Position numbers and translations under genes: made by a program | In this document: positions 10,038 to 63,271 of the stretch, in pieces | Position numbering within the stretch: the first letter of the stretch is position 1 | Layout of the letters: the number at the start of each line of letters is the position of its first letter | The notes under the pieces: generated by a model | The model's input: the letters and a program-made list of their open reading frames with translations, nothing else | What the model was told of the DNA's origin: nothing | Databases searched by the model: none | Origin: Nitrospinota bacterium | GTDB lineage: Bacteria > UBA8248 | Direction of reading: 5' to 3' | Length of the DNA stretch: 64,000 bases | Assembly: GCA_036231405.1 (NCBI GenBank) | Contig: JAZAHK010000012.1 | Span: forward strand, 17,324 to 81,323

Positions 10038-10071
10038 ACGAAACCCTCGCTGAATGCATGAGAACTAAACA

Positions 10072-10485
10072 TTAAACTTCAAATCCAGAAAACCAATAGG
10101 CAATTTCTTCTGAAGCAGTTTCAAGCGCATCAGAGCCGTGAGTAGAATTTCGTTCTATGCTTTCTCCAAATTCTTTTCTCAAAGTTCCAGAATTAGCCTC
10201 TTCTGGATTCGTTGCTCCCATCACAACTCGCCAGTGAGAAATTGCTTCCTCTCTTTCTAGCACCATCACTACTGTCCTTCCTGAGGACATATAACTCGTG
10301 AGATCATCAAAAAAAGGTCGTTCAGAATGAACAGCATAAAATCCTTGAGCTTGTTTTTTACTCATTGCTATCAATTTCAAACTCAAGATCTTAAAACCTT
10401 CTTGTTCGACCCGAGCAAGAATCTTCCCAATCAAGTTCCTCTCCACTGCATCCGGCTTAATCATTGCAAACGTTTTCTGCATCAT
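10072..10485 (-). CDS. ndk: Nucleoside diphosphate kinase
   Basis: 137 aa. [11 protein letters not shown]-terminus and active-site His in NSTHGSD. Confidence 0.95.
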
Positions 10486-10500
10486 AAATCTCCAAAATTC

Positions 10501-12609: not shown

Positions 12610-13539
12610 TTAGAGTGAAGAGGTTAACTCCCGAACATGGTCTGCAGATTTCTTAAACTGATCCATTTCCTCAGGTTTTAAGTCAAGCTCGATAATTTCT
12701 TCTACCCCACCTGCACCTAACTTTATAGGTACACCCATGAAAATATCTTTCTGTCCGTACTCCCCTTCCAACAACGCTGCACAGGGAAGAATCCTTTTCT
12801 TGTCTTTTAGAATAGATTCCACCATCTCAACAATTGAAGCTCCTGGTGCATAAAAAGCACTTCCGGTTTTCAAATAATCGACTATTTCAGCACCACCGTC
12901 TCTAGTTCTTTGCACTAATTCTGCAATTCTCTTCTCATCCATTAGCTTAGTTATAGGAACTCCTGCTACAGTGCTATATCTAGGTAGTGGAACCATACTG
13001 TCTCCATGACCTCCCAATACTAACGCATGCACATCTTCAACGGACACATTCAGTTCCAAAGCTATAAAAGAACGAAACCGCGCACTATCTAAAATTCCAG
13101 CCATCCCCATAATTCTTTCTCGTGGGAACTTGCAGTGTCTATGTGCGACTGTAACCATCACATCAAGAGGGTTTGAGACAATAATCAAAAAACAGTTTGG
13201 AGAATGCTCTACGATAGAATCAGTTACCGATCCTACGATATTTGCATTTGTTGAAATTAAATCATCCCTACTCATCCCAGGCTTTCTTGCGATACCTGCC
13301 GTAACTACAACAACGTCCGAATCTTTCGTGTCTGTATAATCATTCGTTCCTACAATTGCGGCGTCAAATCCTTCAACTGGGGAACTCTCATACAAGTCAA
13401 GTGCTTTTCCTTGAGGAATACCATCTACAATATCTACAAGTACAATATCTCCTAACTCATGGGACGCAGCCCAGTGAGCAGCCGTTGCTCCAACATTACC
13501 AGCACCTACTATCGTTATTTTAGGTCTACCTATCGACAT
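12610..13539 (-). CDS. mdh: Malate dehydrogenase (LDH-like type)
   Basis: 309 aa. [12 protein letters not shown] Rossmann motif, [13 protein letters not shown] and GGHGDSMVP, typical of LDH-like MDH. Confidence 0.9.
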
Positions 13540-13559
13540 CTCATCTCCTTAAAATCTTT

Positions 13560-14810
13560 TCACATATTTTTTATTATTGCCTTTCCAAAATCAGAGCAAG
13601 AAACTTTTTTGGCTCCCTTCATCTGTCGATGAAGATCATAAGTAACTGTTTTCTTCCCAATAGCCTTAGTTGTCCCGGCTACGATTAAATCAGCCGCTTT
13701 CTGCCAACCCATATATCCTAACATCATGACTGCAGACAAGATGAGACTAGATGGATTAACCATATCTTTGCCAGCATATTTTGGAGCGGTTCCATGAGTT
13801 GGTTCAAAGAAGTGGATTTTATCTCCTATGTTCGCTCCAGGAGCCATTCCAAGACCACCAACTTGAGCAGCAACAGCATCTGAGAGATAGTCTCCGTTAA
13901 GATTTGTACAACAAAGGACCTCATATTCTTTAGGTCTTGTTAATACTTGCTGAAAAATGTTGTCTGCGATTCTATCATTAACAAGAATCTTTCCCTTAGG
14001 AAGTTTTCCGTTAAACTTCTTGCTCCACAACTCTTCTTCCGTAACAATGTACTTTCTATATTTCTTTTTCAAAAAAGCATACCCCCAATCCTTAAAAGAA
14101 CCCTCTGTGTATTTTTGTACGTTACCCTTATGAACTAAGCAAAAATATTTTTTCTTATTTTGAATGGCATACTCTATGGCTTTTTTAACAATTCTTTCAC
14201 TTCCGTAAACCGAAATCGGTTTAATTCCAATTCCACTATCTTTTCGAACAGAACAACCCATTTCTTTATTCAAAAAATTGATAACTTTTTTTGCACCCCT
14301 AGAATTTAGTTCCCATTCGATACCAGCATAAACGTCTTCTGTATTTTCTCTGAAAATACACATATTGACGTAGCTAGGATTTATAACCGGGGAGGGCACA
14401 CCAGGATACCATAGGACTGGTCTCACGCATGCGTACAAATCATTAATTTGGCGAAAAGAAACATTCAAACTTCTAAACCCACCACCAATAGGTGTATAAA
14501 GTGGCCCTTTAATTGCAAAGTAGTAATGTCTGATTGCTTTCATTGTCTCTTCAGGCATCAACTCACCATACAACTCCTGAGCATCCTCTCCAGCAAATAC
14601 CCTAAACCATTCAATACGTTTTTTACCCCTAAAAGCTTTCTGCACAGCTGCATTTACAACATCCTTCATAACAGGAGTTATATCAACACCAATGCCATCA
14701 CCTCGAACGTAACAAACTATCGGGTCATTAGGAATCTGTAGGTTGTTGCCCTTATACGTTATACGGGTACCTTCTTTTGGTGCAGTTATTTTATTGAATT
14801 TTATCGCCAT
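13560..14810 (-). CDS. icd: Isocitrate dehydrogenase (NADP-type homodimeric family)
   Basis: 416 aa. Isocitrate/isopropylmalate dehydrogenase signature NLNGDYLSDA, plus FRSLNVSFRQ (substrate Ser region). Confidence 0.9.
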   Translation of the reverse strand: MAIKFNKITAPKEGTRITYKGNNLQIPNDPIVCYVRGDGIGVDITPVMKDVVNAAVQKAFRGKKRIEWFRVFAGEDAQELYGELMPEETMKAIRHYYFAIKGPLYTPIGGGFRSLNVSFRQINDLYACVRPVLWYPGVPSPVINPSYVNMCIFRENTEDVYAGIEWELNSRGAKKVINFLNKEMGCSVRKDSGIGIKPISVYGSERIVKKAIEYAIQNKKKYFCLVHKGNVQKYTEGSFKDWGYAFLKKKYRKYIVTEEELWSKKFNGKLPKGKILVNDRIADNIFQQVLTRPKEYEVLCCTNLNGDYLSDAVAAQVGGLGMAPGANIGDKIHFFEPTHGTAPKYAGKDMVNPSSLILSAVMMLGYMGWQKAADLIVAGTTKAIGKKTVTYDLHRQMKGAKKVSCSDFGKAIIKNM

Positions 14811-14938
14811 TTATAATTCCCCTTTACATTAACCAAACGGACTGGAAACTAATTTACAAAATTATTTTCAATCAAAAAAAAAAAATTAAAACTGATACTA
14901 AGAAGCAGTAAATCAAAAATCAACAGGTTAAATCAAAA

Positions 14939-14968
14939 TTGACAGAAAAATGTACTTGAAATTATAGA
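14939..14968 (+). promoter_or_regulatory. Candidate sigma70-type promoter for rsmA
   Basis: Exact TTGACA at 14939-14944, an 18-nt spacer, then TATAGA at 14963-14968, 24 nt before the rsmA ATG. The background is AT-rich, so this could be a chance match. Confidence 0.3.
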
Positions 14969-14991
14969 AGTAAATCGGCAATCTGCAACTC

Positions 14992-15804
14992 ATGTATAAA
15001 AATTCGACAAAAAAACTTGGACAACATTTTTTACACGACGAATCTCTTCTGAAAGAAATTTGTACCCTTGGAAGTATAAAAGCAGAAGACAGAATACTTG
15101 AAATTGGAGCAGGAGAAGGAACCCTTACAAAAAACCTTCTTGAATCCAAGGCAAAAGTCACGACAGTAGAAATAGACAATAGATTGATTCCGAAATTGAA
15201 AAAACTAAGAACGGAGTGGCCTAATCTTGAAATCATCCACGGAGACGCAACAAAATTAAATTTCAAGAAATTCACTCATCCGACTAAGATAATTTCAAAT
15301 CTGCCATACCAAATTGGCACAAAAATCATTGCTGAAACTTGCAACTACCCTGAGATTTTCAATCTCATGATAGTCATGCTTCAACTAGAGGTTGCAAACC
15401 GAATAGTTGCAAAAGCAGGGGGAAAAGAATACGGCAGCCTCACTCTTTGGGTTCAACATAGGTTTGAAACTAAATTACTGAAAATTGTTCCACCCGAAAT
15501 GTTTTCTCCACCACCAAAAGTAAAATCTGCGATCGTAAGTTTAATTTCAAGAAAATTTCCTATAGTAGATTTACAACATTATGAAGAACAGTATTTTAAA
15601 TTAATCAAAACGTCCTTTATACATAGAAGGAAAACACTTGCAAATAATTTAAAAAATTCTAATGTGTCGTTTATCAAAAATATCAATATAGAAAAATTGC
15701 TTGAATCTTCAGGTATCTCTAAGAACTTGAGAGCCGAAACTATGACAGCTAAAGATTTCGCCACCCTTTTTGAAGAAATCAGAAAAGAATCCGATGAATT
15801 GTAA
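14992..15804 (+). CDS. rsmA: 16S rRNA (adenine1518/1519-N6)-dimethyltransferase
   Basis: 270 aa. KKLGQHFL signature, SAM motif LEIGAGEGTLT, and NLPYQIGT. Confidence 0.93.
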   Translation: MYKNSTKKLGQHFLHDESLLKEICTLGSIKAEDRILEIGAGEGTLTKNLLESKAKVTTVEIDNRLIPKLKKLRTEWPNLEIIHGDATKLNFKKFTHPTKIISNLPYQIGTKIIAETCNYPEIFNLMIVMLQLEVANRIVAKAGGKEYGSLTLWVQHRFETKLLKIVPPEMFSPPPKVKSAIVSLISRKFPIVDLQHYEEQYFKLIKTSFIHRRKTLANNLKNSNVSFIKNINIEKLLESSGISKNLRAETMTAKDFATLFEEIRKESDEL

Positions 15805-16735
15805 ACATTCAATTTATCTACACAGGGTTGGGGCACTCGGAGACACATTGTTAACGATTAAGCTTCTTATGATTCTTAAAAAATACTACCCAGAATCAGT
15901 AATAAGTATGGGAGCAACCCCAAATCATGCAATTCCACTCCTTGAATCAGATCTAGTATCTCAAATAGTAGATGCTACTAGGAGACCTTTTCATCTTTTT
16001 GAAACTCCTTATTCTCCTGAAGATGATTTAACAAAAGAACTAAAGAAATACGATATGATGATCGTTTTCAAAAAAGATGAAAATGGAATGATCAGAAACC
16101 GCTTAGAAAAGATGGGAACTAAAAATTTTGTAATACAATCTCCTTTTCCTCCTAAAAAAAGCAAACTACACGTTTCAAAATGGTTAGAAAGAGCGGTAAT
16201 AAAGCTTAACCAAAATGAACCAAATGAAATTCAAGATATAAAACTAACAATTCCAGATAGCACATTAGTTCTATCTGAATTAGAGATAAAAAAAAATCAA
16301 TTAAAGAGCCCTTTTCTTTCAATACATCCTGGAAGTGGATCCAAAAAAAAATGCGCTCCAATAAATATAATTATAAAAATTGCAAAACAAATAGTTTCCC
16401 TACATGATCTACAACCTGTCCTAATAGAAGGAGTCACAGATGAATCAATATGCAACGAATTTCGTAGGAATTGGGGAAGTGAGATAATCAAAATAAAGAT
16501 AAATTCCCTAAAAATTCTTGCGGGAATATTGATCAAATCTAGAGGATATTTGGGCTGTGACTCTGGGATTAGTCATCTCTCATCTCTATACGGTGTCCCT
16601 ACACTCGTGTTATTCGGACCTTACTCGAACCCAATCCAATGGGGTCCGATTGGGAACAAAAGCTATTGGACGTATTGGGATGAAAAAAAATGCAAAAAAA
16701 CATTAAACAACTTATTTGGAAGCCAAAACAATTAA
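15794..16735 (+). CDS. Glycosyltransferase family 9 (LPS heptosyltransferase-like)
   Basis: N-terminal HRVGALGDTLL and C-terminal GCDSGISHLSSLYGVPTLVLFGP motifs typical of GT9. I prefer the ATG at 15794 to the ORF opening at 15770. Confidence 0.75.
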   Translation: MNCKHSIYLHRVGALGDTLLTIKLLMILKKYYPESVISMGATPNHAIPLLESDLVSQIVDATRRPFHLFETPYSPEDDLTKELKKYDMMIVFKKDENGMIRNRLEKMGTKNFVIQSPFPPKKSKLHVSKWLERAVIKLNQNEPNEIQDIKLTIPDSTLVLSELEIKKNQLKSPFLSIHPGSGSKKKCAPINIIIKIAKQIVSLHDLQPVLIEGVTDESICNEFRRNWGSEIIKIKINSLKILAGILIKSRGYLGCDSGISHLSSLYGVPTLVLFGPYSNPIQWGPIGNKSYWTYWDEKKCKKTLNNLFGSQNN

Positions 16736-36864: not shown

Positions 36865-36893
36865 TTGACAAAAAAAAAAATCAGCAAGATTAT
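36865..36893 (+). promoter_or_regulatory. Candidate sigma70-type promoter for the acd-yqeB-AAA-VWA-yqeC-xdhC operon
   Basis: Exact TTGACA at 36865-36870, a 17-nt spacer dominated by an A tract, then GATTAT at 36888-36893 (TATAAA follows at 36891). It sits about 45 nt upstream of the ATG at 36939. Weak evidence. Confidence 0.25.
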
Positions 36894-36938: not shown

Positions 36939-38087
36939 ATGTTGTTCGACTTAAGTGAATCGCAAAAAATGTTAAAACAAACGGTTCGAGAATTATCTGA
37001 ACGATACATTAAACCAAGGGCTTCAGAGATTGATGAAAACGAAGAATATCCTGAAGATATATATCAACTCCTTAAAGAACATGATCTTTTGGGTATTTTT
37101 TTGCCAGAAAAATATAATGGGGCAGGAATGGGCTTTCTCGGCGGGTGTATAGTTATTGAAGAAATAGCAAGATTTTGTTCCAATAGTCCACTTTTCATAG
37201 TCTTAAATATGCTCTCTAGTAGAGTCATCGAACTAAGCGGGAACGAGGAACAAAAGGATTTTTATTTGAAGGGGTTAGCAAAAGGGGAATTAAGAGGTTC
37301 TTATGCCCTAACTGAACCACACGCTGGATCAGATGCAGGGAATATAAGGACTAGAGCATCTCTTGAGGGAGAGGAGTGGGTTTTAAACGGAACCAAATGC
37401 TATTGCTCTGGACCTGACAAAGCTGATTTTATTACCGTAGCCGCAAAAACTGATTTCAACTTGGGAACGAAGGGAATTACTTATTTTTTAGTCCCCACCG
37501 AAACAAAAGGTTTTAGCGTGGGAAGACATGAAAGAAAAATGGGAATGAAAGGCATATCCACATGCGTTTTGAATTTTGAAAATGTCGCTATTCCTAAAGA
37601 AAATCAAATTGGAGAACTCAATAAAGGATTTAAATCTGCGATGATCGGATTTAACCAGATGCGTCCAGCTATAGGAGCACGTGCAGTCGGTCTTGCGCAA
37701 GGATGTTTTGATTATTCAAAGAACTATTCAAAAGAAAGGGAAGCTTTTGGGTCTCCTATCTCGAATTTTCAAGCAATTCAATTTATGTTAGCAGATATGT
37801 TTATGCAGATAGAAGCAGCACGACTACTAGTGCATAAAGCTGCGAGTTTGGTCGACTCTGGAGAAATAGGAAAAGAAAATGCTCGATACTTTTCTACTGC
37901 TAAGGCATTCGCAGCGGATATGGCCATGAAAGTAGCTATAGATAGCATACAGATTTTAGGTGGTGCAGGGTATATGAAAGACCATCCCCTCGAACGGTTC
38001 ATGAGGGATGCAAAACAAATTCAAATAGTCGAAGGGACAAGTCAAATACAACGTTTGATTATTGCAAGAAATTTATTAGACATATAA
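36939..38087 (+). CDS. Acyl-CoA dehydrogenase (short/medium-chain type)
   Basis: 382 aa. YALTEPHAGSDAGN motif, the C-terminal catalytic-Glu region QIVEGTSQIQRLIIAR, and GGAGYMKDHPLERFMRDAK. Confidence 0.9.
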   Translation: MLFDLSESQKMLKQTVRELSERYIKPRASEIDENEEYPEDIYQLLKEHDLLGIFLPEKYNGAGMGFLGGCIVIEEIARFCSNSPLFIVLNMLSSRVIELSGNEEQKDFYLKGLAKGELRGSYALTEPHAGSDAGNIRTRASLEGEEWVLNGTKCYCSGPDKADFITVAAKTDFNLGTKGITYFLVPTETKGFSVGRHERKMGMKGISTCVLNFENVAIPKENQIGELNKGFKSAMIGFNQMRPAIGARAVGLAQGCFDYSKNYSKEREAFGSPISNFQAIQFMLADMFMQIEAARLLVHKAASLVDSGEIGKENARYFSTAKAFAADMAMKVAIDSIQILGGAGYMKDHPLERFMRDAKQIQIVEGTSQIQRLIIARNLLDI

Positions 38088-38119
38088 AACATATTTTAAA
38101 TTATCTTTGAATTCTATAA

Positions 38120-38980
38120 TTGGGACAAATATTGAGAAAAACATTTCCTGAAAATGAAATAAAAAACTCACTTGTTATTCTTAGGGGTGGAGGAGACATC
38201 GCTTCTGGAATAGCGCAAAAGATTTTTCGTTCAGGATTCCCAATAGTTATCACGGAAACTGACAATCCAACAATGGTAAGAAGAACTGTTTCTTTCGCAG
38301 AATGCATCTACTCAGGGCGAACAAAAATTGAAGACCTTGTTTCAGAAAAGGTACAAGGAGAAACTTTTAAGAAGAAATTTGATTCTGCTATTCAACTTTT
38401 AGCAGATAGTACAATACCTGTTATAGTTGATCCAGAATGCAAAATACTTGAGTTTGCAAGACCTAAAATTCTAATAGATGCAATATTGGCAAAAAGAAAC
38501 CTTGGCACGCAAATCGATCAAGCTCAAATAGTGATAGGAGTTGGACCTGGATTTGTGGCGGGCTCTGACTGTCATGCAGTAATTGAGACTGCGAGAGGGC
38601 ACGATATTGGAAGAATCATATTCAATGGCAAGGCTGTCGAAAATACCGGAGTTCCAGGTCCAATTGCAGGATACACAACAGAGAGACTCCTTCGCTCTCC
38701 AAAAAAAGGGACATTTAAGTCGATCAAAAAAATAGGAGACCAAGTTGCCAAAGGAGACTTAATAGCCCAAGTAGACGAACATAAAATCTTTTCAAAGATA
38801 CCTGGGGTCATAAGAGGATTACTCAGGGACGATCTTTTCATTCCAAAGGGATTCAAGGTCGGTGATATAGATCCTAGAGGAAAACCAGAACACTGCATGA
38901 CTATTTCAGATAAATCAAGAAATATCGCAGGAGGTGTTCTTGAGGCGATATTGATTTTACTTAACGAGCAATCAATTTAA
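38120..38980 (+). CDS. yqeB: YqeB/EF2563-family protein (selenium-dependent molybdenum hydroxylase system accessory protein)
   Basis: 286 aa with a TTG start (uncertain). VILRGGGDIASGIAQKIFRSGFPIVITETDNPTMVRRTVSFAECIYSG matches my recollection of the N-terminal Rossmann-like signature of this family. The assignment is recalled, not searched. Confidence 0.6.
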   Translation: MGQILRKTFPENEIKNSLVILRGGGDIASGIAQKIFRSGFPIVITETDNPTMVRRTVSFAECIYSGRTKIEDLVSEKVQGETFKKKFDSAIQLLADSTIPVIVDPECKILEFARPKILIDAILAKRNLGTQIDQAQIVIGVGPGFVAGSDCHAVIETARGHDIGRIIFNGKAVENTGVPGPIAGYTTERLLRSPKKGTFKSIKKIGDQVAKGDLIAQVDEHKIFSKIPGVIRGLLRDDLFIPKGFKVGDIDPRGKPEHCMTISDKSRNIAGGVLEAILILLNEQSI

Positions 38981-38997
38981 AAAAACGGAGTTTAAAA

Positions 38998-39882
38998 TTG
39001 ACTATTGAAATTCGAAAAGAAAGGACAGAAAATGGCACATATAAAATTGGAAGAAGTAAGATAACAGTCAATGAAAACGAAGAGAATCCGTATGTCCCAG
39101 AACCTCAATACTATGTTCCAGTGGGGGACGATTTAGAAAAGACGGCTTGGGCAGTAAGTAAAGATCTTCCAGTATTACTTATAGGCGAAACTGGTGTTGG
39201 AAAAACTCTCTTAGTTCGACATTTAGCGCAAATGACAAACAATGGATTTCGCAGAGTAAATCTAAATGGCATGACTACCGTTGACGAATTTGTTGGTAAA
39301 TTGATGATTAATAAAAACGGCACCTATTGGGTCAATGGAATTCTTATAGATGCAATGGAATCAGGAGAATGGCTCCTTATAGATGAAATCAACGCATGTC
39401 TTCCTGAAATTGCATTTTGTCTCCATAGCCTTCTTGATGACGACAAAATGATAGTTTTGACAGAATATGATGGGAGAATCATCAAACCACACCCAAATTT
39501 CAGAGTTTTTGCAAGTATGAATCCTAACGAAGACAGAAGGTACGCCGGAACTAAAGCGCTCAATGAAGCTCTTCTGGATCGATTCCCAGTTTCAATAAAA
39601 ATGAACTATCTTCCCTACGAAATAGAAGTAGATGTTGTAATGAATCAAAGTGAAAATAAGGACAAGAAATTAATAGAAAAAATGGTTAGGGTTGCAAATG
39701 ATGCAAGAGAAGCTATCCAAAACGAAAAAATATTTTGTACATTCAGCACGCGAAGGTTAATTGACTGGGCACGTATGTCTGTTTCATTCAGCCCTTCTGA
39801 ATCAGCTATTTCAACGATTTACGGCAAAATTAATGAGTTCGACGCAAAAGTAATAGAAGACATAATTGACAACTATTTTTAA
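38998..39882 (+). CDS. AAA+ ATPase, AAA_5 / MoxR-type (CbbQ-NorQ-CobS-like)
   Basis: 294 aa. TTG start with GGAG upstream. Walker A GETGVGKT (39184-39207), Walker B LLIDEIN, and FRVFASMNPNE..GTKALNEALLDRF (sensor / Arg-finger region typical of AAA_5). Confidence 0.8.
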   Translation: MTIEIRKERTENGTYKIGRSKITVNENEENPYVPEPQYYVPVGDDLEKTAWAVSKDLPVLLIGETGVGKTLLVRHLAQMTNNGFRRVNLNGMTTVDEFVGKLMINKNGTYWVNGILIDAMESGEWLLIDEINACLPEIAFCLHSLLDDDKMIVLTEYDGRIIKPHPNFRVFASMNPNEDRRYAGTKALNEALLDRFPVSIKMNYLPYEIEVDVVMNQSENKDKKLIEKMVRVANDAREAIQNEKIFCTFSTRRLIDWARMSVSFSPSESAISTIYGKINEFDAKVIEDIIDNYF

Positions 39883-39892
39883 AAACCAACCT

Positions 39893-41635
39893 ATGGAAAA
39901 AAGAAGAGTAAGACTAGAGGTTTTAGCACAAGTAGTAAGTAAGAACTACGAATTAAATCTTGAATTCGGTGATTCTGACTCTGAGAATTCTTCGAAAGAA
40001 AAAATTCAAATAGAAAAACCAGAAAAATCCCTAGAGAACCTAAGTGGGGAAACAGACGAGGGACATTTTTTAAAATATCAAAAAGGGATGACCTTAATTG
40101 AAGCATCCCATCTAAGATTCAAGGATAGAAAATGGCTCGCTAAGATCATCCAAGACAACAAAGAAAAACCAGGAATCTTTCGCTTATGGCATACTCTTGA
40201 TGATACTCGCTGCGAGAATCTTCTCACCTTTTCACTTCCTGGAACTAAAAAGAACCTAATAGAATTCATAAGACCTTCTATTGAATCTGCACACTCTGCG
40301 ATGAGAATTGGAGATTTGCCTCTTCTTTTACAAATTCAATGGGGAATCTATCTAACAGGCGCTACATATATAAAAGAGAACAAAGAAGTAGATTTAAATA
40401 TAGGAATAATGAAAATACTAGATCCGAAAGTCTCCGAAAGCTTAGAAACCTTAAAGTTGAAAATAAAAGAGGCCTGTGAATCGGCAGATGGAGAAATTAC
40501 CTATGAGTGCTCTCATGAAATTTACGATTTCTTAAACAAAAAGTTGACAGATGAAGATATCGAAAACTTCAGGGAAGATAAAACTATCGATTCAGAAATT
40601 GAAGACATGAAAATCGATCAAAGCGAAAATAATGAGCCTCACGAAAGCCAGACTCAAGAAGGTACAATTAATGATGATGATGAAGAAATCTCATCTTTCA
40701 TTGAAGAAGAAGTTGCGACATTAGGTCACTGGTCTACTCCATGGTTCCAATTGGAAAATAAAAAGAAAGAGATTCACCCTTCTGCAATCCAACGAGACGA
40801 ACTAACCACAATGACACCACCAGATGGAAAATCATCTGAATATTCAGAAATCCTCGAAAATATTTCAAGTGAAATTAAAGTTTTAACTGCAAAACTATTA
40901 CAAATTATTCAAGAAAAAACCTACACGAGATACATAGGAAACTATAGGTCAGGGAAACTTAATGCACACAAGCTTTGGAAACAGAGATTGGAGAAGTATG
41001 ATCTTTTCCAAAGACGTGAAGATCCGGAGAAATTAGATATTTGCTTTAGTTTACTAGTGGATGAAAGCGGCAGTATGAACAGGGAATCAAAGTACCTTGC
41101 AGCCAGAGAAGCAACTGTTGTGTTCGCTGAAGTTTTAGACCGTATTAGAGTTCCTTTTGAAGTAATAGGATATTCTACCGAAAATTCTGAAGCAGCAATG
41201 GCAGCTTCACTTGGACATATCCCTGCATTTAAATTTAGGCATATCCGTCATTCGAAATTACAACATAGAATCTATAAATCTTTCGATGACACGTTCACTC
41301 AAACCAAGAATAGATTAGTAAATATTTATCCTCGCTTTAATAACTGGGACGAAGAACACCTTTTATTTGCATTCAAAAGGATTTTACAAAGAAATGAGAA
41401 AGAGAAAATAATTATAATCACGTCTGACGGTCAGCCTAATGGAGACGCATCCCACTTAATTTCTACTGCAAGTGAAATTACAAAACACGGTGTTAGGCTA
41501 ATAGGAGTAGGGGTAGTAGATTCCTTTGTTGAACAAATTTACGAAAATCACATAGTAGTGAAAGAATTGACTCAGTTGACACAGGAAATAATCGAAATCC
41601 TAAGAAAAGAATTATTGGGAAATAGATCGAGATGA
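39893..41635 (+). CDS. Large VWA-domain protein with central acidic region (NorD/CbbO/CobT/CoxE-like partner of the AAA+ ATPase)
   Basis: About 580 aa from ATG 39893 (the ORF opens with TTG at 39866). Acidic low-complexity stretch at about 40547-40714 (DEDIENFREDKTIDSEIEDMKIDQSENNEPHESQTQEGTINDDDEEISSFIEEE). C-terminal VWA domain with MIDAS DESGS at 41060-41074 and ITSDGQPNG. The stop overlaps the yqeC start (ATGA). Confidence 0.75.
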   Translation: MEKRRVRLEVLAQVVSKNYELNLEFGDSDSENSSKEKIQIEKPEKSLENLSGETDEGHFLKYQKGMTLIEASHLRFKDRKWLAKIIQDNKEKPGIFRLWHTLDDTRCENLLTFSLPGTKKNLIEFIRPSIESAHSAMRIGDLPLLLQIQWGIYLTGATYIKENKEVDLNIGIMKILDPKVSESLETLKLKIKEACESADGEITYECSHEIYDFLNKKLTDEDIENFREDKTIDSEIEDMKIDQSENNEPHESQTQEGTINDDDEEISSFIEEEVATLGHWSTPWFQLENKKKEIHPSAIQRDELTTMTPPDGKSSEYSEILENISSEIKVLTAKLLQIIQEKTYTRYIGNYRSGKLNAHKLWKQRLEKYDLFQRREDPEKLDICFSLLVDESGSMNRESKYLAAREATVVFAEVLDRIRVPFEVIGYSTENSEAAMAASLGHIPAFKFRHIRHSKLQHRIYKSFDDTFTQTKNRLVNIYPRFNNWDEEHLLFAFKRILQRNEKEKIIIITSDGQPNGDASHLISTASEITKHGVRLIGVGVVDSFVEQIYENHIVVKELTQLTQEIIEILRKELLGNRSR

Positions 41636-42474
41636 AAAAGACTTTCATTGAAACCTATATAACAAAAGCTTTAGGATTACGGAACGGAGAGGTAATTTCC
41701 GTCGTGGGTGGAGGTGGAAAGACTAGCATCATCAAAAAACTTGCAAAAGAAATGTTGGAATTCAATTCTGCTTCAATTTTAATCACAACCACCACAAACA
41801 TTTTTTTTCCTGAAAATGAACTAGAATCCTCAGTCATTTTGGGAACAGAGCAAACTATCGCGGAAATGTTGAACACTAAAGTTGAAACAAAAAATACAAT
41901 CCTTACACTTGCGAGAAAAAAAATTGGGAAAGAAATAGTCCCAAACCAAACTGACAAAAACTTAAAATATATGAAACTGAAAGGATTCAAAAAAGAAAAT
42001 ATCAAACAATTTATCAAGAATGACAGAATTATCTTGGTTGAAGCCGATGGATCGAAGGGGCTCCCTATTAAGGCTCCAAATAGCGACGAACCAGTTGTCC
42101 CTGAAGAATCAAACTATATTTTAGGTGTTATTGGATTAGACGCGATTGGCCTACCTGTCTCAAAAGAGAATGTTTTTAGACAAAAACAATTTTGTGAAGT
42201 GACTGGGATGAAAAAGAAAATGAAAGTTAGTCCTGAAAGCATCGCATCTCTAATAAGACATCCAAATGGGATTTTTCAAAACAGCCCGAAAAATGCAAAA
42301 AGAGCAATAATATTGAACAAAGCAGATTGTATTAAAAATATAGACGAAATTGAAAAAATCGCTTATATTATCAATAAATTAGCGCACTTCCCAAGAGAAC
42401 AGACGGACAGACTCGTAATAACTAGTTGTCATTCTTGGGAGTCGAGCTTAGTATATACTGGTGTTACAAAGTAA
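41632..42474 (+). CDS. yqeC: YqeC-family P-loop protein (putative selenium cofactor biosynthesis / selenium-dependent hydroxylase accessory protein)
   Basis: 280 aa. LRNGEVISVVGGGGKTS P-loop-like N-terminus and LVEADGSKGLPIKAPNSDEPVVP, the pattern I associate with YqeC. Translationally coupled to the VWA gene. Confidence 0.65.
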   Translation: MKKTFIETYITKALGLRNGEVISVVGGGGKTSIIKKLAKEMLEFNSASILITTTTNIFFPENELESSVILGTEQTIAEMLNTKVETKNTILTLARKKIGKEIVPNQTDKNLKYMKLKGFKKENIKQFIKNDRIILVEADGSKGLPIKAPNSDEPVVPEESNYILGVIGLDAIGLPVSKENVFRQKQFCEVTGMKKKMKVSPESIASLIRHPNGIFQNSPKNAKRAIILNKADCIKNIDEIEKIAYIINKLAHFPREQTDRLVITSCHSWESSLVYTGVTK

Positions 42475-42506
42475 AATTTTAGTCGTTTGATATAGGAATT
42501 GGTTTA

Positions 42507-43640
42507 ATGTCAAAAAGTATTTTCAATACGATGGAAGATCTCATACAAAAAGGTGAACCCGCGTCTATTGCTACAATAGTTAATCGTAAAGGGTCTGCAC
42601 CTATGAGTAGTGATGCAAAAATGCTTGTAAGGCAAGATGGAAGCATAGAAGGCACAGTAGGAGGAGGCTGTCTCGAGGCAGAAGTCTGGCAAGCTGCTAT
42701 GGACGTTCTAGAAAATAAAAAATCTGAAAAACTCCGATTTGACCTTACAGAGAAGGATGCGGCCGATAGCGGACATATTTGTGGTGGAATAGTTGAAATC
42801 TTCGTTGAACCTTTAGAAAGCTATACAATTGAGTTACTTACTGCAGTTAATAAGATTAGAAGAACGGGAGGGAGTGCAGCTATGGCTACCCAAATATCTC
42901 CTTCAGAAAATGCAAACAACAAACTTCTAATTCTAAAGGATGGAAGTACCGTTGGAAGCCTCTCAAAGTACGAAGCAGAAATTTGGCGTGAAAGTTCTCG
43001 GATTATGAGAGAAGGACAACCCACGACATTAGAATTTGGAAAAAATAAACTAGGTGATGGCACATCAAAAGAAGAATTACCTAGTACAGAAATTTTCATA
43101 GAACCTATAGCAATGCAACCTAAAATTTACCTCTTCGGAGGCGGTCATGTTTCCTTTTGCGTAGCGCAAACTGCACACCTTGCTGGATTTCGCACAGCGA
43201 TAGTAGAAGATAGACCGAGTTTTGCTAACAAGGAAAGATTCCCTATGGCTGAAGATTTTTATGTAGGAGAGTTTCCTGAAATCTTTAATTCTCTCGAAAT
43301 TGATGAATCTAGTTATCTAGCAATAATTACACGCGGTCATGCAAATGATGAGATAGTTTTAGAATGGGCACTTTCTACACCTGCACGTTACATAGGAATG
43401 ATAGGTTCAAAGAGTAAAGTACTTCTCACTTATCGTCACTTACAAGAAAAAGGGTTCAAGAGAAATGACCTCATAGAAAGAGTCCACGCGCCAATCGGCT
43501 TAGATATCGGTGCAGACAGCCCCGGAGAAATAGCTGTATCAATCGTTGCAGAGTTAATTAAAAATAGAAGACTAGGGCAAGAACTAGCACTAAAGTCGAT
43601 CCAGTCGAAACGAGTGCCTTTCCCAAGCGAAAAAAAATAA
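42507..43640 (+). CDS. XdhC/CoxI(CoxF)-family molybdenum-cofactor insertion chaperone
   Basis: 377 aa. XdhC_CoxI N-domain (ATIVNRKGSAPMSSDAKMLVRQDGSIEGTVGGGCLEAEV) and a Rossmann-like C-domain (IYLFGGGHVSFCVAQTAHLAGFRTAIVEDRPSFAN..ITRGHANDE..IGMIGSKSK). Confidence 0.85.
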   Translation: MSKSIFNTMEDLIQKGEPASIATIVNRKGSAPMSSDAKMLVRQDGSIEGTVGGGCLEAEVWQAAMDVLENKKSEKLRFDLTEKDAADSGHICGGIVEIFVEPLESYTIELLTAVNKIRRTGGSAAMATQISPSENANNKLLILKDGSTVGSLSKYEAEIWRESSRIMREGQPTTLEFGKNKLGDGTSKEELPSTEIFIEPIAMQPKIYLFGGGHVSFCVAQTAHLAGFRTAIVEDRPSFANKERFPMAEDFYVGEFPEIFNSLEIDESSYLAIITRGHANDEIVLEWALSTPARYIGMIGSKSKVLLTYRHLQEKGFKRNDLIERVHAPIGLDIGADSPGEIAVSIVAELIKNRRLGQELALKSIQSKRVPFPSEKK

Positions 43641-44882: not shown

Positions 44883-45389
44883 ATGTCTCAAGGTGTGAGT
44901 GCTCAGAAGATCTTAAATAAAATAAAAGAATTGCAATTCAACCATGTCCTTATGATTCCGGATTCAGAGAGTCGTCTTCTCTATGAAAGTATAGAAAAAG
45001 ATACATCTATAGAATTAATAACCCCGTGTCGAGAAGGTGAATCGATAGCGATTGCCGCAGGACTTTGGACTGGTGGGGCTAGCCCTCTGGTAGTAATACA
45101 AAATACAGGTTTAATGGAAGCAGGAGATTCTCTTAGAGGATGTGGAATGGGACCACGTGTCCCGCTTAGAATGATAATTGGATGGAGAGGATATGGAAAC
45201 GCAATGTCAAATAAATTACCTATAGATTCTGCCTATACCTATACTGAACCACTTCTAAACGGTTGGGGAATCCCATATTGGCATCTGATGAATGATAGTG
45301 ATTTAGAAGCAATGGACAAAATGGATAAAACTGCTGAAGAAACTTCTATGCCGGCTGCTGTAATTACCGGGTACACATTCAAACAATAG
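44883..45389 (+). CDS. Split TPP-dependent decarboxylase, alpha (PYR-domain) subunit; sulfopyruvate/phosphonopyruvate decarboxylase family (ComD-like)
   Basis: 168 aa. Layout and motifs (CREGESIAIAAGLW.., VVIQNTGLMEAGDSL) parallel archaeal ComD as I recall it. It pairs with the following beta subunit, 16 nt away. Confidence 0.55.
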   Translation: MSQGVSAQKILNKIKELQFNHVLMIPDSESRLLYESIEKDTSIELITPCREGESIAIAAGLWTGGASPLVVIQNTGLMEAGDSLRGCGMGPRVPLRMIIGWRGYGNAMSNKLPIDSAYTYTEPLLNGWGIPYWHLMNDSDLEAMDKMDKTAEETSMPAAVITGYTFKQ

Positions 45390-45405
45390 GATAAGAAGGT
45401 CAAAG

Positions 45406-45990
45406 ATGATTGAAAGAATGGACATGCTCAAAACTATTGCAGAAAATAGAACTAACGAAGTAGTAGTTATGACTATGACCACAACCTTACAATGGCCTCT
45501 CGTTTCAGATCATGACCTTGATTTCGACTTTTTAGCCTTTGGAATGGGACATGCTGCAGATTTTGCTATGGGAATTGCACTTTCTCAACCAGAAAGAAAA
45601 ACGATTGTTTTTAAGGGTGATGGGGGGTTATTGATGAGTCTTGGCTCAATGATTACACTTTCAAAATATGCCCCAGAAAATATGCTAATCTTCCTACTTG
45701 AGAATAGATGTTACGAAATGGTAGGAGGTCAGGGATTTTCGCAGAGAGTAGATTTTGAAAAAATAGCTAGTGGATCTGGTTTTGAGGGAGGAGGAAGAAC
45801 AGGAAAAGGTAAAATTGAAAAGATTGACAATCTCCAGGTTTTACAGGACTCTCTTCCAAGACTACTTTCAGAACCAGGCCCTCATTTCGTTATAGTTCCT
45901 GTAAAAAATAGTGAAAAACTGCCTCCTGTAAATCATTCTGATCATGCAGAAAGAATCATTAAGCTTAGAACTAATCTACTCCAGAAGTAA
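45406..45990 (+). CDS. Split TPP-dependent decarboxylase, beta (PP-domain) subunit (ComE-like)
   Basis: 194 aa. Thiamine-diphosphate binding motif GDGGLLMSLGSMITLSKYAPENMLIFLLENRCYE (GDG-x24-EN). Confidence 0.6.
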   Translation: MIERMDMLKTIAENRTNEVVVMTMTTTLQWPLVSDHDLDFDFLAFGMGHAADFAMGIALSQPERKTIVFKGDGGLLMSLGSMITLSKYAPENMLIFLLENRCYEMVGGQGFSQRVDFEKIASGSGFEGGGRTGKGKIEKIDNLQVLQDSLPRLLSEPGPHFVIVPVKNSEKLPPVNHSDHAERIIKLRTNLLQK

Positions 45991-59364: not shown

Positions 59365-61311
59365 ATGACAAACAAGAATGTGATCTGGCAACCAAACGAA
59401 GACTTTTTGCAAAACAGTAATATTGCTCTCCTGATGAAAAAATTAAATTTCACAGATTATCGAGAATTTCTTGCGTGGTCTGTAAAAGACATTCATAGTT
59501 TCTGGGAAATCATCTTGGAAGATATGAATTTTCAATGGCATAAAAAATATCACACACTATTAGATCTTAGTGATGGTTTCCCTTGGGCTAAATGGTTCGT
59601 AGGTGGAGAAACCAATATAGTAACAAACTGTTTGGACAGACATCTTCATGGCAGCCGTAAGAGTAAAACTGCGTTAATCTGGGAAAGTGATGATGGCAAT
59701 AAAATAACTTTCACATACGAGCAACTCTCTGAGGAAGTGAATAAAGTTGCTAATGCTTTGAGAAACTCAGGATTAAAACCAGGAGACGTCGCTGGAGTTT
59801 TCCTTCCACTTTTACCCGAAGCAGTCATAGCAATGTACGCATGCTTTAAGACTGGTATCGCTGTACTCCCAATTTTCTCTGGATTTGGTCCTGAAGGACT
59901 CGCAGAGAGACTTATTCATTCGAAAGCAAAAATTTTATTTACTTCAGATGGTGCAATTAGAAGAGGAAAAACAATACCACTCAAAAACACGGTAGATTCA
60001 GCTTTAAAACAAGAAACATCTATACAGAAAGTTATACTAGTTGAAAGAGCAGAAATTGAGGTCAACTTACAAGAAGGCAGAGATCTAACTTGGAACGAAT
60101 TTATATCTTCTGAATCTGATAACTCGGAAACAGAGAATTTACCTGCTAACGCAATTTCAATGATTATGTATACCTCAGGGACCACTGGAAAACCGAAAGG
60201 TACTGTATATTCGCATGCCGGATTGATGAGTGGACCTGGAAGAGAATTAAAATACTGCTTTGATATGAGAGATAACGATACAATGTTCTGGGTTACTGAT
60301 TTCGGGTGGGTAATGGCCCCTTATGAACTTGTTGGTTCGCATTTTAATGGACACTCATGTTTCCTCTACGAAAGCGTTCCAAATCACCCTGAACCAGACA
60401 GACTTTGGAAAATCATTTCCAATTCAAACATCACACATCTTGGACTATCACCTACAGCGGTAAGAGTTTTAATTGGAGAAGGAAACAATTGGGTAGATAA
60501 ACATGATCTTTCCTCTTTAAGAATCCTTGGCTCTACTGGGGAACCTTGGGACGCAGAATCTTATCTTTGGTATTTCAATAAAGTCGGATCAAAGAAATGT
60601 CCAATCATGAATATTTCCGGGGGAACGGAAATAGGCGCTTGTATACTACAACCACTACCCGTCATGGATCTAACTCCATGCACACTTGGAGGCCCTGCAA
60701 TGGGGACTGATGCAGATGTCTTTGACGATGAAGGTAATCCAATTAGGAATGAAGTTGGTCATCTCGTCTTGAAACAACCTATCCCTTCTTTAACAATGGG
60801 ATTTTTAAACGATTCAGAAAGATATTTAGAAACTTATTTTTCTCGCTGGGATAATGTTTGGTACCACGGGGACTGGGCTAAAGTCGATGAGGATGGATTC
60901 TGGTATCTTTTCGGGCGTTCAGACGACACGATTAAAGTTTCGGGGAAAAGAATTGGTCCTAACGAAATTGAATCAGAACTTCAAAAACATCCCGGGGTTA
61001 TAGAAACTGCAGTTATAGGAACTCCTCATCCTGTAAAAGGAGAAGCTATTACCTGTTTTATAGTTCTTGCAAACGGATATGAACCCAACGATAAAATGAG
61101 GGAAGAACTCAAGGATCAAGCGGTCAAATATTTGGGGAAAAGTCTTAGGCCAGACGAGGTAAAATTTGTAGAGTATCTTCCTAAAACTAGATCTGCAAAA
61201 ATTGTAAGAGGAGCAATCAAAAAAATCTATCTTGGAGAAGATATCAAACACATGGACTTAAGTTCCCTTGAAGACTCCGCACATCTTGATGCTATTAAAG
61301 AAGCAAAATAA
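59365..61311 (+). CDS. AMP-forming acyl-CoA synthetase, acetyl-CoA synthetase family (paralog A)
   Basis: 648 aa. ACS-type N-terminal domain (FWEIILEDMNFQW, PWAKWFVGGETNIVTNCLDRHL), AMP-binding motif YTSGTTGKPKG, GSTGEPW, YHGDWA, GRSDDTIKVSGKRIGPNEIE, and a C-terminal LPKTRSAKIVRG. Confidence 0.88.
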   Translation: MTNKNVIWQPNEDFLQNSNIALLMKKLNFTDYREFLAWSVKDIHSFWEIILEDMNFQWHKKYHTLLDLSDGFPWAKWFVGGETNIVTNCLDRHLHGSRKSKTALIWESDDGNKITFTYEQLSEEVNKVANALRNSGLKPGDVAGVFLPLLPEAVIAMYACFKTGIAVLPIFSGFGPEGLAERLIHSKAKILFTSDGAIRRGKTIPLKNTVDSALKQETSIQKVILVERAEIEVNLQEGRDLTWNEFISSESDNSETENLPANAISMIMYTSGTTGKPKGTVYSHAGLMSGPGRELKYCFDMRDNDTMFWVTDFGWVMAPYELVGSHFNGHSCFLYESVPNHPEPDRLWKIISNSNITHLGLSPTAVRVLIGEGNNWVDKHDLSSLRILGSTGEPWDAESYLWYFNKVGSKKCPIMNISGGTEIGACILQPLPVMDLTPCTLGGPAMGTDADVFDDEGNPIRNEVGHLVLKQPIPSLTMGFLNDSERYLETYFSRWDNVWYHGDWAKVDEDGFWYLFGRSDDTIKVSGKRIGPNEIESELQKHPGVIETAVIGTPHPVKGEAITCFIVLANGYEPNDKMREELKDQAVKYLGKSLRPDEVKFVEYLPKTRSAKIVRGAIKKIYLGEDIKHMDLSSLEDSAHLDAIKEAK

Positions 61312-61315
61312 GAAC

Positions 61316-63271
61316 ATGCCAAAAAAGAAAAATTCCGAGATCATATGGAACCCGAATCAGGATTTCATGAATAGAAGCAACATCGCTCTATTGATGAAAA
61401 AGAACAACATTGCAAACCATTCAGAACTAATAAAGTGGTCACAAAAAGATTCTACTCCCTTCTGGGAAATTATTTTAGAAGAAATGAAAATTGAATGGTA
61501 TGAGGAATTTCGAGAAGTGTTAGATTCTAGCAAGGGTTTCCCCTGGGCAAAATGGTTTTCGGGTGGAAAAATCAACATTGCTCATAATTGTATCGACAAA
61601 CATCTCACCAACGGAAAGGGGGGGCATCTTGCACTGATATGGGAAGGAGATGATGGAAGTAAAAGAACATTTACCTATGAGGAAATGTCTTCTGAGGTAT
61701 CTAAACTTGCAAATGCCATGAAGGAATCTGATCTTAAAGTTGGAGATACAGCAGCAATTTTCATGCCTATGGTTCCAGAAACTATTTTTGCAATGTTTGC
61801 TTGCTTTAAAATAGGTGTAATAGCGGTCCCTATTTTTTCTGGCTTCGGACACGAAGCTGTTGCCGAACGCCTTACAAACGCACAAGTCCAACTTGTATTT
61901 ACTTCGAATTATGGACTTCGAAGAGGGAAGATAATAGCTATCAAAGAACTATTAGACAAAGCACTTCAAATTAATACCTCTGTAAAAAAAGTGATTGTCT
62001 ACGAAAGGACTGAAAGTTCCTATTTTACTCAAAATAATCGAGATATAAAATGGCGCGACTTTATACATAACAAGTCTATAACAGCTGAAACAATACAACT
62101 AGACTCTGAAGCAATTTCCATGATCATTTATACTTCCGGAACAACTGGGAAACCAAAGGGAACATTACACACTCATGCAGGGTGTCTAACTACCATCACT
62201 AAAGAAGTTAAATACTGCATGGATCTAAGAGATAACGATATTCTTTTCTGGCTTACTGACATAGGGTGGATGATGGGACCCTGGGAAATGATTGGGACTC
62301 AGTGTCTTGGACAAACTTATCTTGTATATGAAGGGACACCAAATTGGCCCAAACCAGACAGAATTTGGAAACTCATATCCGATCATAAAGTCACACATCT
62401 CGGGATTTCTCCTACTGCTATTCGTTTACTTATAAGTAGTGGTGAAAAATGGACAAAAAATTACGATCTTTCAACCTTAAGAGTTCTTGGTTCAACTGGA
62501 GAGCCATGGGATCCTGAATCATATATGTGGTTTTTTGAGAAAATAGGAAATAAACGTTGCCCGATAATGAACATTTCTGGTGGAACAGAAATTTGTGGAT
62601 GCCTTTTACAACCTTATCCAATTATGGAGTTATCAAAGTGTTCACTAGGAGGTCCTGCTTTAGGAGTTCATACTGACGTCTTCAATGAAGAAGGTAAACC
62701 TATCCGCGGAGAAATAGGACATCTTGTCTGCAAAAAACCGATGCCCTCGATGACTAAAAGTTTTCTTATGGATGACAATCGATATTTAGAGACCTATTTC
62801 TCGAGATTTCCCAACACCTGGTATCACGGGGATTGGGCGATGGTTGATGAATTTGACCAATGGTTTCTCTATGGTAGATCAGACGATACAATCAATGTGG
62901 CAGGGAAGCGAGTAGGTCCTGCTGAGGTCGAATCTGAGTTAATTCGTCACCCCTCTGTTGTTGAGGCTGCAGTCATTGGTACTCCCCATCCTATAAAAGG
63001 CGAAGTTCTAACGTGTTTCGTAGTTATCAAGGATGAATTTGATGCCTCCGATCAGCTTAGAGAAGAGTTGAAAGATGAAACAACAAAATATTTAGGAAAA
63101 AGTCTACGTCCTGAGACAGTTAAATTTGTTGAAGGGTTACCCAAAACTAGATCTTCTAAAATCGTAAGAGGCGCAATCAAGAAGTTGTTTTTAGGAACTA
63201 GTATAAACGAAATCGACACCTCTTCTATAGAAGATCCAACACTTTTAGACGCTATTTCGAGGGCAAAATAA
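61316..63271 (+). CDS. AMP-forming acyl-CoA synthetase, acetyl-CoA synthetase family (paralog B)
   Basis: Start at ATG 61316 (MPKKKNSEIIWNP), 4 nt after the paralog A stop; the ORF opens at 61268 inside the upstream gene. Same motif set (YTSGTTGKPKG, GSTGEPW, GRSDDTINVAGKRVGPAEVE, LPKTRSSKIVRG). Collinear with paralog A at roughly 55-60% identity by eye. Confidence 0.88.
   Translation: MPKKKNSEIIWNPNQDFMNRSNIALLMKKNNIANHSELIKWSQKDSTPFWEIILEEMKIEWYEEFREVLDSSKGFPWAKWFSGGKINIAHNCIDKHLTNGKGGHLALIWEGDDGSKRTFTYEEMSSEVSKLANAMKESDLKVGDTAAIFMPMVPETIFAMFACFKIGVIAVPIFSGFGHEAVAERLTNAQVQLVFTSNYGLRRGKIIAIKELLDKALQINTSVKKVIVYERTESSYFTQNNRDIKWRDFIHNKSITAETIQLDSEAISMIIYTSGTTGKPKGTLHTHAGCLTTITKEVKYCMDLRDNDILFWLTDIGWMMGPWEMIGTQCLGQTYLVYEGTPNWPKPDRIWKLISDHKVTHLGISPTAIRLLISSGEKWTKNYDLSTLRVLGSTGEPWDPESYMWFFEKIGNKRCPIMNISGGTEICGCLLQPYPIMELSKCSLGGPALGVHTDVFNEEGKPIRGEIGHLVCKKPMPSMTKSFLMDDNRYLETYFSRFPNTWYHGDWAMVDEFDQWFLYGRSDDTINVAGKRVGPAEVESELIRHPSVVEAAVIGTPHPIKGEVLTCFVVIKDEFDASDQLREELKDETTKYLGKSLRPETVKFVEGLPKTRSSKIVRGAIKKLFLGTSINEIDTSSIEDPTLLDAISRAK

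Follow-up and report, generated by a model that had tools for sequence, protein, structure and literature searches.

YqeB and YqeC are accessory proteins which, with SelD, belong to the “Se-cofactor trait” of selenium-dependent molybdenum hydroxylases (PMC2276186; PMC11448449). Matches to the YqeB profile TIGR03309 were confined to genomes that contain selD (PMC2276186), and yqeB was shown to be required, like selD, for selenium-dependent growth of Clostridioides difficile on xanthine and urate (PMC11448449). In this organism, yqeB and yqeC are unlinked from each other as well as from selD and the hydroxylase genes (PMC11448449). Here, a 64,000 nt stretch of a Nitrospinota genome (assembly GCA_036231405.1, contig JAZAHK010000012.1, positions 17,324 to 81,323; hereafter the window) was found to contain yqeB and yqeC on either side of a gene pair coding for a MoxR-class AAA+ ATPase and a von Willebrand factor A (VWA) protein, followed by xdhC. 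The five genes, yqeB-AAA-VWA-yqeC-xdhC, probably constitute an ATP-driven, post-translational maturation module for a xanthine oxidase (XO)-family molybdenum (Mo) hydroxylase that is encoded elsewhere in the genome of this member of the Nitrospinaceae.

The locus shares with the Se-cofactor trait the presence of bona fide YqeB and YqeC proteins, as judged by curated hidden Markov models, the partnership of an XdhC domain with YqeB, and the lack of linkage to hydroxylase genes and selD that is known from C. difficile. It differs in that YqeB is present in a short form, XdhC is encoded separately by the last gene of the operon, and the AAA+/VWA pair is placed between yqeB and yqeC. In addition, the host belongs to an aerobic chemolithoautotrophic lineage, the Nitrospinota, and not to the Firmicutes, Enterobacteria or Halobacteria. 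No description of an AAA+/VWA pair within the YqeB/YqeC system was found in the literature searched, nor was an earlier account found in that on Nitrospina with xanthine dehydrogenase or selenocysteine. Judging from its gene content the locus appears to be a new case in which a MoxR-class AAA+/VWA maturation pair was recruited to the accessory set of selenium-dependent hydroxylases.

A comparable combination of proteins is known from Oligotropha carboxidovorans, where CoxD (AAA+), CoxE (VWA with a MIDAS, the metal ion-dependent adhesion site) and CoxF (XdhC motif) act post-translationally on the XO-family [CuSMoO2] site of CO dehydrogenase (PMC4240915). This parallel, which an earlier note on the window had drawn, holds for an analogous role, and in one group of relatives (clade C, see below) the pair comes after the structural genes, in the way that coxDEF are placed behind coxMSL. 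It does not extend to family membership: the window ATPase is of the AAA_5/CbbQ_C type rather than MoxR-proper, and the VWA protein is CobT_C/NorD-like. PF05762 (VWA_CoxE) was absent among the Pfam matches of the VWA protein at E ≤ 0.01, and membership of the CoxD/CoxE family was therefore rejected at the Pfam level. Furthermore, the 580-aa adaptor of the window carries a helical N-domain and an acidic linker and is partnered by YqeB and YqeC, whereas copper-related features, coxG and cox genes were not seen at the window.

Closest by sequence and fold are NorQ/NorD, which serves FeB insertion into cNOR, the Rubisco activase CbbQ/CbbO, and the cobalt chelatase CobS/CobT/CobN. In the NorQD complex, the pore of the ATPase ring takes up a finger of the VWA domain, and a linker required for metal insertion is twisted as ATP is hydrolyzed (PMC13036017). 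In CobSTN, the shaft of CobT is inserted in the CobS ring while the other face of CobT binds CobN (bioRxiv 10.64898/2026.07.21.739949). The ATPase and MIDAS motifs are intact in the window pair, and its adaptor probably docks in the ring pore as well. However, the window pair scores far under the equivalog cut-offs of these systems, and its recurrent partner is an XO-family Mo hydroxylase together with cofactor chaperones; no nor or cbb client genes are present.

The yqeB-AAA-VWA-yqeC-xdhC gene cluster

Six co-directional genes, separated by 32, 17, 10, −4 (ATGA overlap) and 32 nt, code for an acyl-CoA dehydrogenase (ACAD), YqeB, the AAA+ ATPase, the VWA protein, YqeC, and XdhC. The earlier note had set out this arrangement, and all of its coordinates and gaps were confirmed. 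Its ACAD, AAA_5, VWA and XdhC family calls were likewise borne out by Pfam and NCBIfam scans, the Pfam scans covering 46 window open reading frames (ORFs) of at least 110 aa and leaving out eight ORFs shorter than 340 aa in 564-3941, 5597-6424, and 9264-11400.

The yqeB gene (38120-38980, + strand) codes for a short, 286-aa form of YqeB that matches TIGR03309 with 358.8 bits (cut-off 220), residues 19-279 covering profile positions 1-255 of 256. On the strength of this match, the protein is assigned to the YqeB family and predicted to serve the selenium-dependent Mo hydroxylase trait as an accessory factor. Residue C259 and the motifs ETxRGH, GDxDPR, and SDK are invariant in the homologs compared (24-38). 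The AlphaFold2 (AF2) model has a pLDDT (predicted local distance difference test) value of 91.7, and no PDB structure was found to be alike in the whole fold (best TM scores 0.24-0.32). Weak hints point to an E1/ThiF-like Rossmann domain and to a lipoyl/biotinyl-type or aspartoacylase-like beta domain; the lipoyl/biotinyl-type hint was also remarked on in the C. difficile study (PMC11448449). The mechanism of YqeB is not readable from its model.

YqeC (41632-42474, + strand) is a P-loop protein of 280 aa whose start codon overlaps the stop codon of the VWA gene (ATGA). It matches TIGR03172 with 176.1 bits (cut-off 73.05) and PF19842 with 131.5 bits, and shares 35% identity with Escherichia coli YqeC. 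The GxGGKT and EADG motifs are invariant in 36 homologs, and no PDB relative was identified by sequence. The family assignments of both YqeB and YqeC, which the earlier note had made without profile searches, thus rest on scores far above the curated cut-offs.

The last gene of the cluster (42507-43640, + strand) encodes a 377-aa, XdhC-family chaperone that binds the molybdenum cofactor (Moco). Both the N-terminal XdhC_CoxI domain (90.6 bits) and the XdhC_C Rossmann domain (131.8 bits) are present. The protein falls below the equivalog cut-offs of TIGR02964, the xanthine dehydrogenase XdhC model (118.5 vs. 161.6), and, by a narrow margin, of NF045664, the NCBIfam model named “XdhC family aldehyde oxidoreductase maturation factor” (337.8 vs. 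350). The relation between XdhC and YqeB becomes apparent from E. coli YqeB, a fusion protein of 541 aa: its residues 2-249 align with the window XdhC (31-36% identity) and its residues 262-529 with the window YqeB (46% identity). Therefore, the first and the last gene of the core correspond to the two halves of one known protein, and XdhC can be regarded as an intrinsic partner of YqeB. The genes located between these halves in the window are those of the ATPase pair and yqeC.

The AAA+ ATPase (38998-39882, + strand, 294 aa) is of the MoxR class and of the AAA_5/CbbQ_C type. It matches AAA_5 with 98 bits, as compared with 40 bits for AAA_3, and its residues 210-272 match CbbQ_C (37.3 bits vs. 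a cut-off of 20.6); by this combination of an AAA_5 core with CbbQ_C, the protein belongs to the CbbQ/NirQ/NorQ (CGN) subfamily of MoxR ATPases. The PDB matches are CobS (9ujv, 95 bits), CbbQ (5c3c, 86 bits), and NorQ (9qhd, 79 bits). Walker A (GETGVGKT), Walker B (DE), the sensor-1 Asn, the Arg of LLDRF, and STRR are invariant in 62 homologs. The protein is predicted to be the motor subunit of the pair.

The gene of the VWA/MIDAS adaptor (39893-41635, + strand, 580 aa) starts 10 nt downstream of the ATPase gene. Though the mechanically called ORF begins with a TTG codon at 39866, 19 full-length homologs align from the ATG codon at 39893, which is therefore considered the better start. The protein matches CobT_C (69 bits) and VWA (24 bits), and the MIDAS residues D390-x-S392-x-S394, T429, and D512 are invariant in 20 homologs. 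An “acidic VWA protein” had been described in the earlier note, which is accurate for a 65-residue linker (residues 226-290, 20 Asp/Glu, isoelectric point 4.05) and not for the entire protein, whose isoelectric point is 5.4. In the AF2 model (pLDDT 75), a helical N-terminal domain is followed by a disordered acidic linker (242-289), a long helix, and the C-terminal VWA domain; Foldseek ranked the VWA domain of NorD, as seen in NorQD complexes, and the MIDAS domain of midasin highest among its matches. The two proteins thus display the features of a MoxR-class pair, with intact Walker, sensor, and Arg-finger motifs encoded beside an intact MIDAS. The ATPase also matches midasin with 337 bits, a value that is the sum over six AAA_5 modules, and the pair resembles a split, single-module bacterial counterpart of midasin.

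Three clades of the AAA+/VWA pair

A profile search with the VWA protein, in which one genome for each of 185,579 species was covered, retrieved 84 loci, about 70 of which are true members of a small and distinct pair family. The loci were sorted by a tblastn survey into three clades, with 24 (clade A), four (clade B), and 16 (clade C) loci possessing full flanks. A scan of Joint Genome Institute (JGI) metagenomes for an arrangement that would join a hydroxylase with yqeB/yqeC independently recovered these three architectures and no others.

Clade A comprises 38 loci of Nitrospinota, and the window belongs to this architecture. The gene order is DAHP synthase (− strand), ACAD, [second ACAD], [UGSC, 357-aa protein], [RidA], YqeB, AAA, VWA, YqeC, XdhC, [ComF-like], and, further on, PdxA (− strand), with variable genes given in brackets. 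The genes of YqeB, AAA, VWA, YqeC, and XdhC were found in all 24 full-flank loci, each from a separate GTDB species, and in the same order. Together with the metagenome contigs, this conservation places the arrangement far beyond chance. A one-off insertion of the pair between yqeB and yqeC, which the earlier note had named as the observation that would speak against it, is not what is seen; instead, the pair is a constant component of the cluster and is translationally coupled to yqeC.

Clade B consists of five loci plus L003/L004 and L108 and exhibits the order YqeB-AAA-VWA, without YqeC or XdhC. Hydroxylase genes are located approximately 4.6-4.7 kb downstream on the same strand in two of the four full-flank loci (L044 and L046), where the flavin adenine dinucleotide (FAD) subunit, an unsplit large subunit, and the iron-sulfur (FeS) subunit are encoded, and also in L108, which shows the FeS and large subunits. 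The best match of the clade B hydroxylase is the alpha subunit of 4-hydroxybenzoyl-CoA reductase. In L044, the VWA gene and the hydroxylase are separated by a molybdenum bis(pyranopterin guanine dinucleotide)-type oxidoreductase of the dimethyl sulfoxide reductase family (13530-15876), which appears to be broken up into two or three ORFs by a frameshift or assembly error.

In clade C (27 loci, Chloroflexota/Anaerolineales), the order is FAD subunit, 2Fe-2S subunit, split large subunit (~434 + 336 aa), AAA, and VWA. The hydroxylase genes are situated directly upstream of the pair in 16 of 16 full-flank loci, and about 60% of the loci also have an xdhC gene 6-8 kb downstream. The four-subunit layout and the L/M split are the same as in the nicotinate dehydrogenase NdhF/S/L/M of Eubacterium barkeri. 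The large subunit finds its best PDB match in this enzyme (3hrd_A, full length, 246 bits vs. 163 for the next), while the hydroxylase misses all NCBIfam equivalog cut-offs. This hydroxylase is present neither in the window nor in clade A. In L005 (1-21767) and other clade C loci, hydroxylase and pair are located inside a conserved catabolic cluster, with KduI, a dihydrodipicolinate synthase-like lyase, a zinc-dependent alcohol dehydrogenase, a metallo-beta-lactamase (MBL)-fold protein, 2-hydroxyacid dehydrogenase, aldehyde dehydrogenase, a sugar-phosphate isomerase/epimerase-like protein, and transketolase among the neighbors.

Neighbor-joining trees of the AAA and VWA proteins are congruent, both with the topology (C,(A,B)) and a Thermoplasmatales pair as the outgroup, indicating that the two genes travelled together and co-evolved as a unit. 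Linkage to hydroxylase genes is found on either side of the deepest split in these trees. CobS/CobT-like pairs that are more distant, with ATPases sharing 33-38% identity, exist on megaplasmids of Burkholderiaceae and haloarchaea in unrelated contexts, and the association with hydroxylases is thus specific to the family of the window pair. For example, the pair of P. sabiae is located beside genes for an aldolase, enolase, and TpiA. In L093 (11842-19134), plasmid pHmuk01 of Halomicrobium mukohataei, the pair is preceded by two Ser/Thr kinases and followed by a 1485-aa HEAT-repeat protein; it is a different, uncharacterized MoxR/VWA system. Because of their unrelated contexts, these plasmid-borne relatives were rejected as functional clues.

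Proposed function, client enzyme and selenium

The linkage of the pair to hydroxylase genes, together with its placement among YqeB, YqeC and XdhC, supports the suggestion of the earlier note that the cluster encodes an energy-driven machine for Mo hydroxylase maturation; the individual biochemical steps are those that we infer from the NorQD and CobSTN systems. In this model, XdhC would bind the pterin-molybdenum cofactor and keep it in its ligand-modified state, while YqeB, with the invariant C259, and the P-loop protein YqeC would supply or install the labile terminal chalcogen, most likely SelD-derived selenium. The AAA+ protein would form a hexameric ring, into which the VWA protein would dock as NorD does into NorQ and CobT into CobS. 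The MIDAS face of the adaptor could then grip either the apo-hydroxylase in its folded state or the donor complex of XdhC and YqeB, and ATP hydrolysis would pull and twist the adaptor, open the buried active site, and allow the cofactor or its Se/S ligand to be inserted. A more far-reaching version, held only tentatively, is that the pair is the missing ATP-driven “insertase” of the labile-selenium Mo cofactor, which opens a folded hydroxylase for YqeB, YqeC, and XdhC, and that the Nitrospinota consequently run an unrecognized selenium-dependent Mo hydroxylase.

Relatives of the window with 52-56% identity carry a gene for a UGSC-family selenoprotein two to three positions upstream of yqeB. 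In 23 of 23 loci (L001 6008-6616 and 22 more, e.g., L009-L016 and L100-L102), an in-frame TGA coincides precisely with the U of the motif. Gene callers split this gene into two ORFs of 94 aa, and a version of the protein with C in place of U scores above the NCBIfam cut-off (142 vs. 125). The in-frame TGA implies that these relatives must decode selenocysteine and possess SelD. The gene was lost from the window and from its closest relatives, L006-L008. Between the UGSC and RidA genes, 16 of the 24 full-flank clade A loci encode a conserved 357-aa protein (L001 6630-7703) that matches no Pfam or NCBIfam model; it may be the “Unknown_1” domain reported to be fused to UGSC proteins (PMC2398784).

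The similarity of the clade C large subunit to 3hrd_A is a further pointer to selenium, as E. barkeri nicotinate dehydrogenase is the structurally characterized Mo=Se enzyme. Since selenium dependence is not known to have a sequence signature, this similarity is suggestive but falls short of proof. On balance, selenium is the more likely, if unproven, inserted ligand.

Several observations weigh against a selenium-dependent maturation module with a client elsewhere in the genome. As the earlier note had stated, the window itself lacks a candidate client: Pfam scans of the 46 ORFs and tblastn searches across the whole 64 kb with the FAD, FeS, and large subunits of hydroxylases, E. coli SelD, and MocA yielded no match, and the ORF scan of the window revealed neither a UGSC gene nor credible TGA-interrupted ORF candidates. 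Similarly, none of the 24 clade A loci with full flanks has a hydroxylase, selD, or mocA gene within 10 kb of the module, and none of the 16 of clade C has yqeB or yqeC within 10 kb of the pair. When the large subunit of clade B was searched against 5.8 billion proteins, no clade A protein was among the best 120 matches, in which the proteins of clade B came first and a very large family with 53-57% identity came next. The genome paper on N. gracilis makes no mention of an XO-family enzyme. In C. difficile, moreover, yqeC proved largely dispensable (PMC11448449). The “orphan” placement as such, which the earlier note considered unusual, is less odd than it seemed, since the C. difficile genes are equally unlinked and a Chloroflexi metagenome-assembled genome (MAG) carries a similarly isolated yqeB. 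In the latter (L088 9391-10810), yqeB overlaps the end of a gene for a MocA-like nucleotidyltransferase, and the two stand alone among housekeeping genes (RecG, LepA).

Part of this evidence would also fit a machine of the same kind whose inserted chalcogen is sulfur, serving an ordinary Mo=S hydroxylase of aerobic nitrite oxidizers, in which case the family names would overstate the role of selenium. The sulfurated cofactor is the usual cargo of XdhC chaperones (PMC2997495, PMC4240915), YqeB or YqeC alone may act in selenium-unrelated processes (Peng et al., PMC5029168), and neither selD nor selenoprotein genes were found in the window. The linkage of the clade C pair to hydroxylases without yqeB or yqeC nearby likewise suggests that the pair may serve hydroxylase maturation generally rather than selenium insertion. 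However, it is the joint presence of YqeB and YqeC, both far above their equivalog cut-offs, that constitutes the published signature of the Se-cofactor trait, SelD should be available given the TGA-containing UGSC gene in the cluster of relatives, and the clade C hydroxylase is most similar to the selenium-dependent nicotinate dehydrogenase, so that sulfur appears rather unlikely. Still less probable is a client other than a hydroxylase, such as another metalloenzyme (e.g., nitrite oxidoreductase) or the remodeling of YqeB/XdhC, with the position of the pair reflecting co-regulation only. The clients of MoxR/VWA pairs are known to be diverse (PMC9976466), the distant pairs of P. sabiae and Halomicrobium occur in unrelated contexts, and clade A lacks an adjacent hydroxylase. 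Within the family, though, an XO-family hydroxylase is the only recurrent structural-gene partner (clades B and C), and in clade A the pair is embedded among hydroxylase-specific accessory genes in invariant order and is translationally coupled to yqeC.

Database names such as “cobaltochelatase CobT-related protein” suggest yet another identity, that of the aerobic cobaltochelatase CobS/CobT, and the best curated matches (CobS, TIGR01650; CobT, TIGR01651 and PF11775) as well as the PDB matches to CobS and CobT are in line with it. The scores are far under the equivalog cut-offs (93.6 vs. 558.55 bits for TIGR01650 and 50.4 vs. 759.05 for TIGR01651), CobT aligns with the C-terminal half of the VWA protein only, and cob genes including CobN are absent from the window and from related loci, where the context is YqeB/YqeC/XdhC or a hydroxylase. 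Scores and context effectively refute this identity. It is also very improbable that the ACAD takes part in the system, either as client or as a pathway enzyme that uses the hydroxylase, for instance on a CoA thioester in the manner of 4-hydroxybenzoyl-CoA reductase, the enzyme to which the clade B hydroxylase is most similar. The ACAD gene precedes yqeB by 32 nt with no terminator-like site, and 21 of the 24 clade A loci with full flanks have an ACAD gene upstream of the module, but it is missing from the 20 full-flank loci of clades B and C, and one to four genes (second ACAD, UGSC, 357-aa protein, RidA) separate it from yqeB in most of clade A. Furthermore, the stretch from DAHP synthase to PdxA is syntenic across the phylum, so that vertical inheritance can account for the adjacency, and as far as known ACADs do not need Mo, Se, or VWA-type maturation. 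A five-gene maturation module for an XO-family Mo hydroxylase thus remains the preferred interpretation.

Genomic surroundings and implications

The ACAD (36939-38087, + strand, 382 aa) contains all three Pfam domains (Acyl-CoA_dh_N/M/1). Its best NCBIfam match is acryloyl-CoA reductase (398 bits vs. a cut-off of 640), and no equivalog cut-off is reached. In contrast to the six-gene system of the earlier note, the ACAD is a lineage-specific neighbor and not part of the conserved maturation core. The tight junction with yqeB in the window is most likely the outcome of the loss of intervening genes next to an unrelated metabolic gene, and co-transcription with the module is plausible. A pattern scan revealed no terminator-like sites on the + strand between the six genes, which constitutes weak evidence. 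The best sigma-70-like promoter in the region (36865-36893, + strand, TTGACA-17-GATTAT, 10/12) is located 46 nt 5' of the ACAD start codon and represents a possible, weakly supported operon promoter; the match is only suggestive, since 32 promoter-like sites were counted in the region against 26 expected by chance.

The window has a G+C content of about 37%, and its nearest relatives are uncultured Nitrospinaceae MAGs with 78-81% protein identity. The surroundings are those of an ordinary chromosome, with genes for Mfd, a RodZ-like helix-turn-helix protein, DAHP synthase, PdxA, a split thiamine pyrophosphate (TPP)-dependent decarboxylase, Zn-dependent dehydrogenases, CCA enzyme, pyrimidine and carbamoyl-phosphate genes, LepA, UvrA, tricarboxylic acid cycle enzymes, a CoA-transferase, a TRAP transporter, and two acetyl-CoA-synthetase-like genes. 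Scans of the window identified neither tRNA genes nor Rfam matches. The split decarboxylase (44883-45990, 168 + 194 aa) is similar to sulfopyruvate/phosphonopyruvate decarboxylase, adjoins pdxA, and is syntenic across Nitrospinota. The acetyl-CoA-synthetase-like genes (59365-63271, 648 and 667 aa) are arranged in tandem with ORFs overlapping by 44 nt and are located downstream of genes for two glyoxalase-fold proteins, an MBL-fold protein, and the TRAP transporter, whose membrane component is a fusion of 825 aa.

The route by which labile selenium reaches the Mo center is the least understood biological use of selenium, and the biochemistry of YqeB and YqeC is not known. Their physical coupling, in a conserved operon, to a motor and an adaptor with relatives that place metals in enzymes already folded provides a concrete and testable mechanism. 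The five genes form a compact cassette for reconstitution, and the Chloroflexota loci offer an adjacent natural client, the nicotinate-dehydrogenase-like hydroxylase. The model predicts an unrecognized Mo hydroxylase and a selenium requirement in the Nitrospinota, which are major marine nitrite oxidizers. As the pair is present in most sampled Nitrospinota, its proposed function, if true, would mean that globally important nitrite oxidizers use a selenium-dependent Mo hydroxylase that has so far gone unrecognized.

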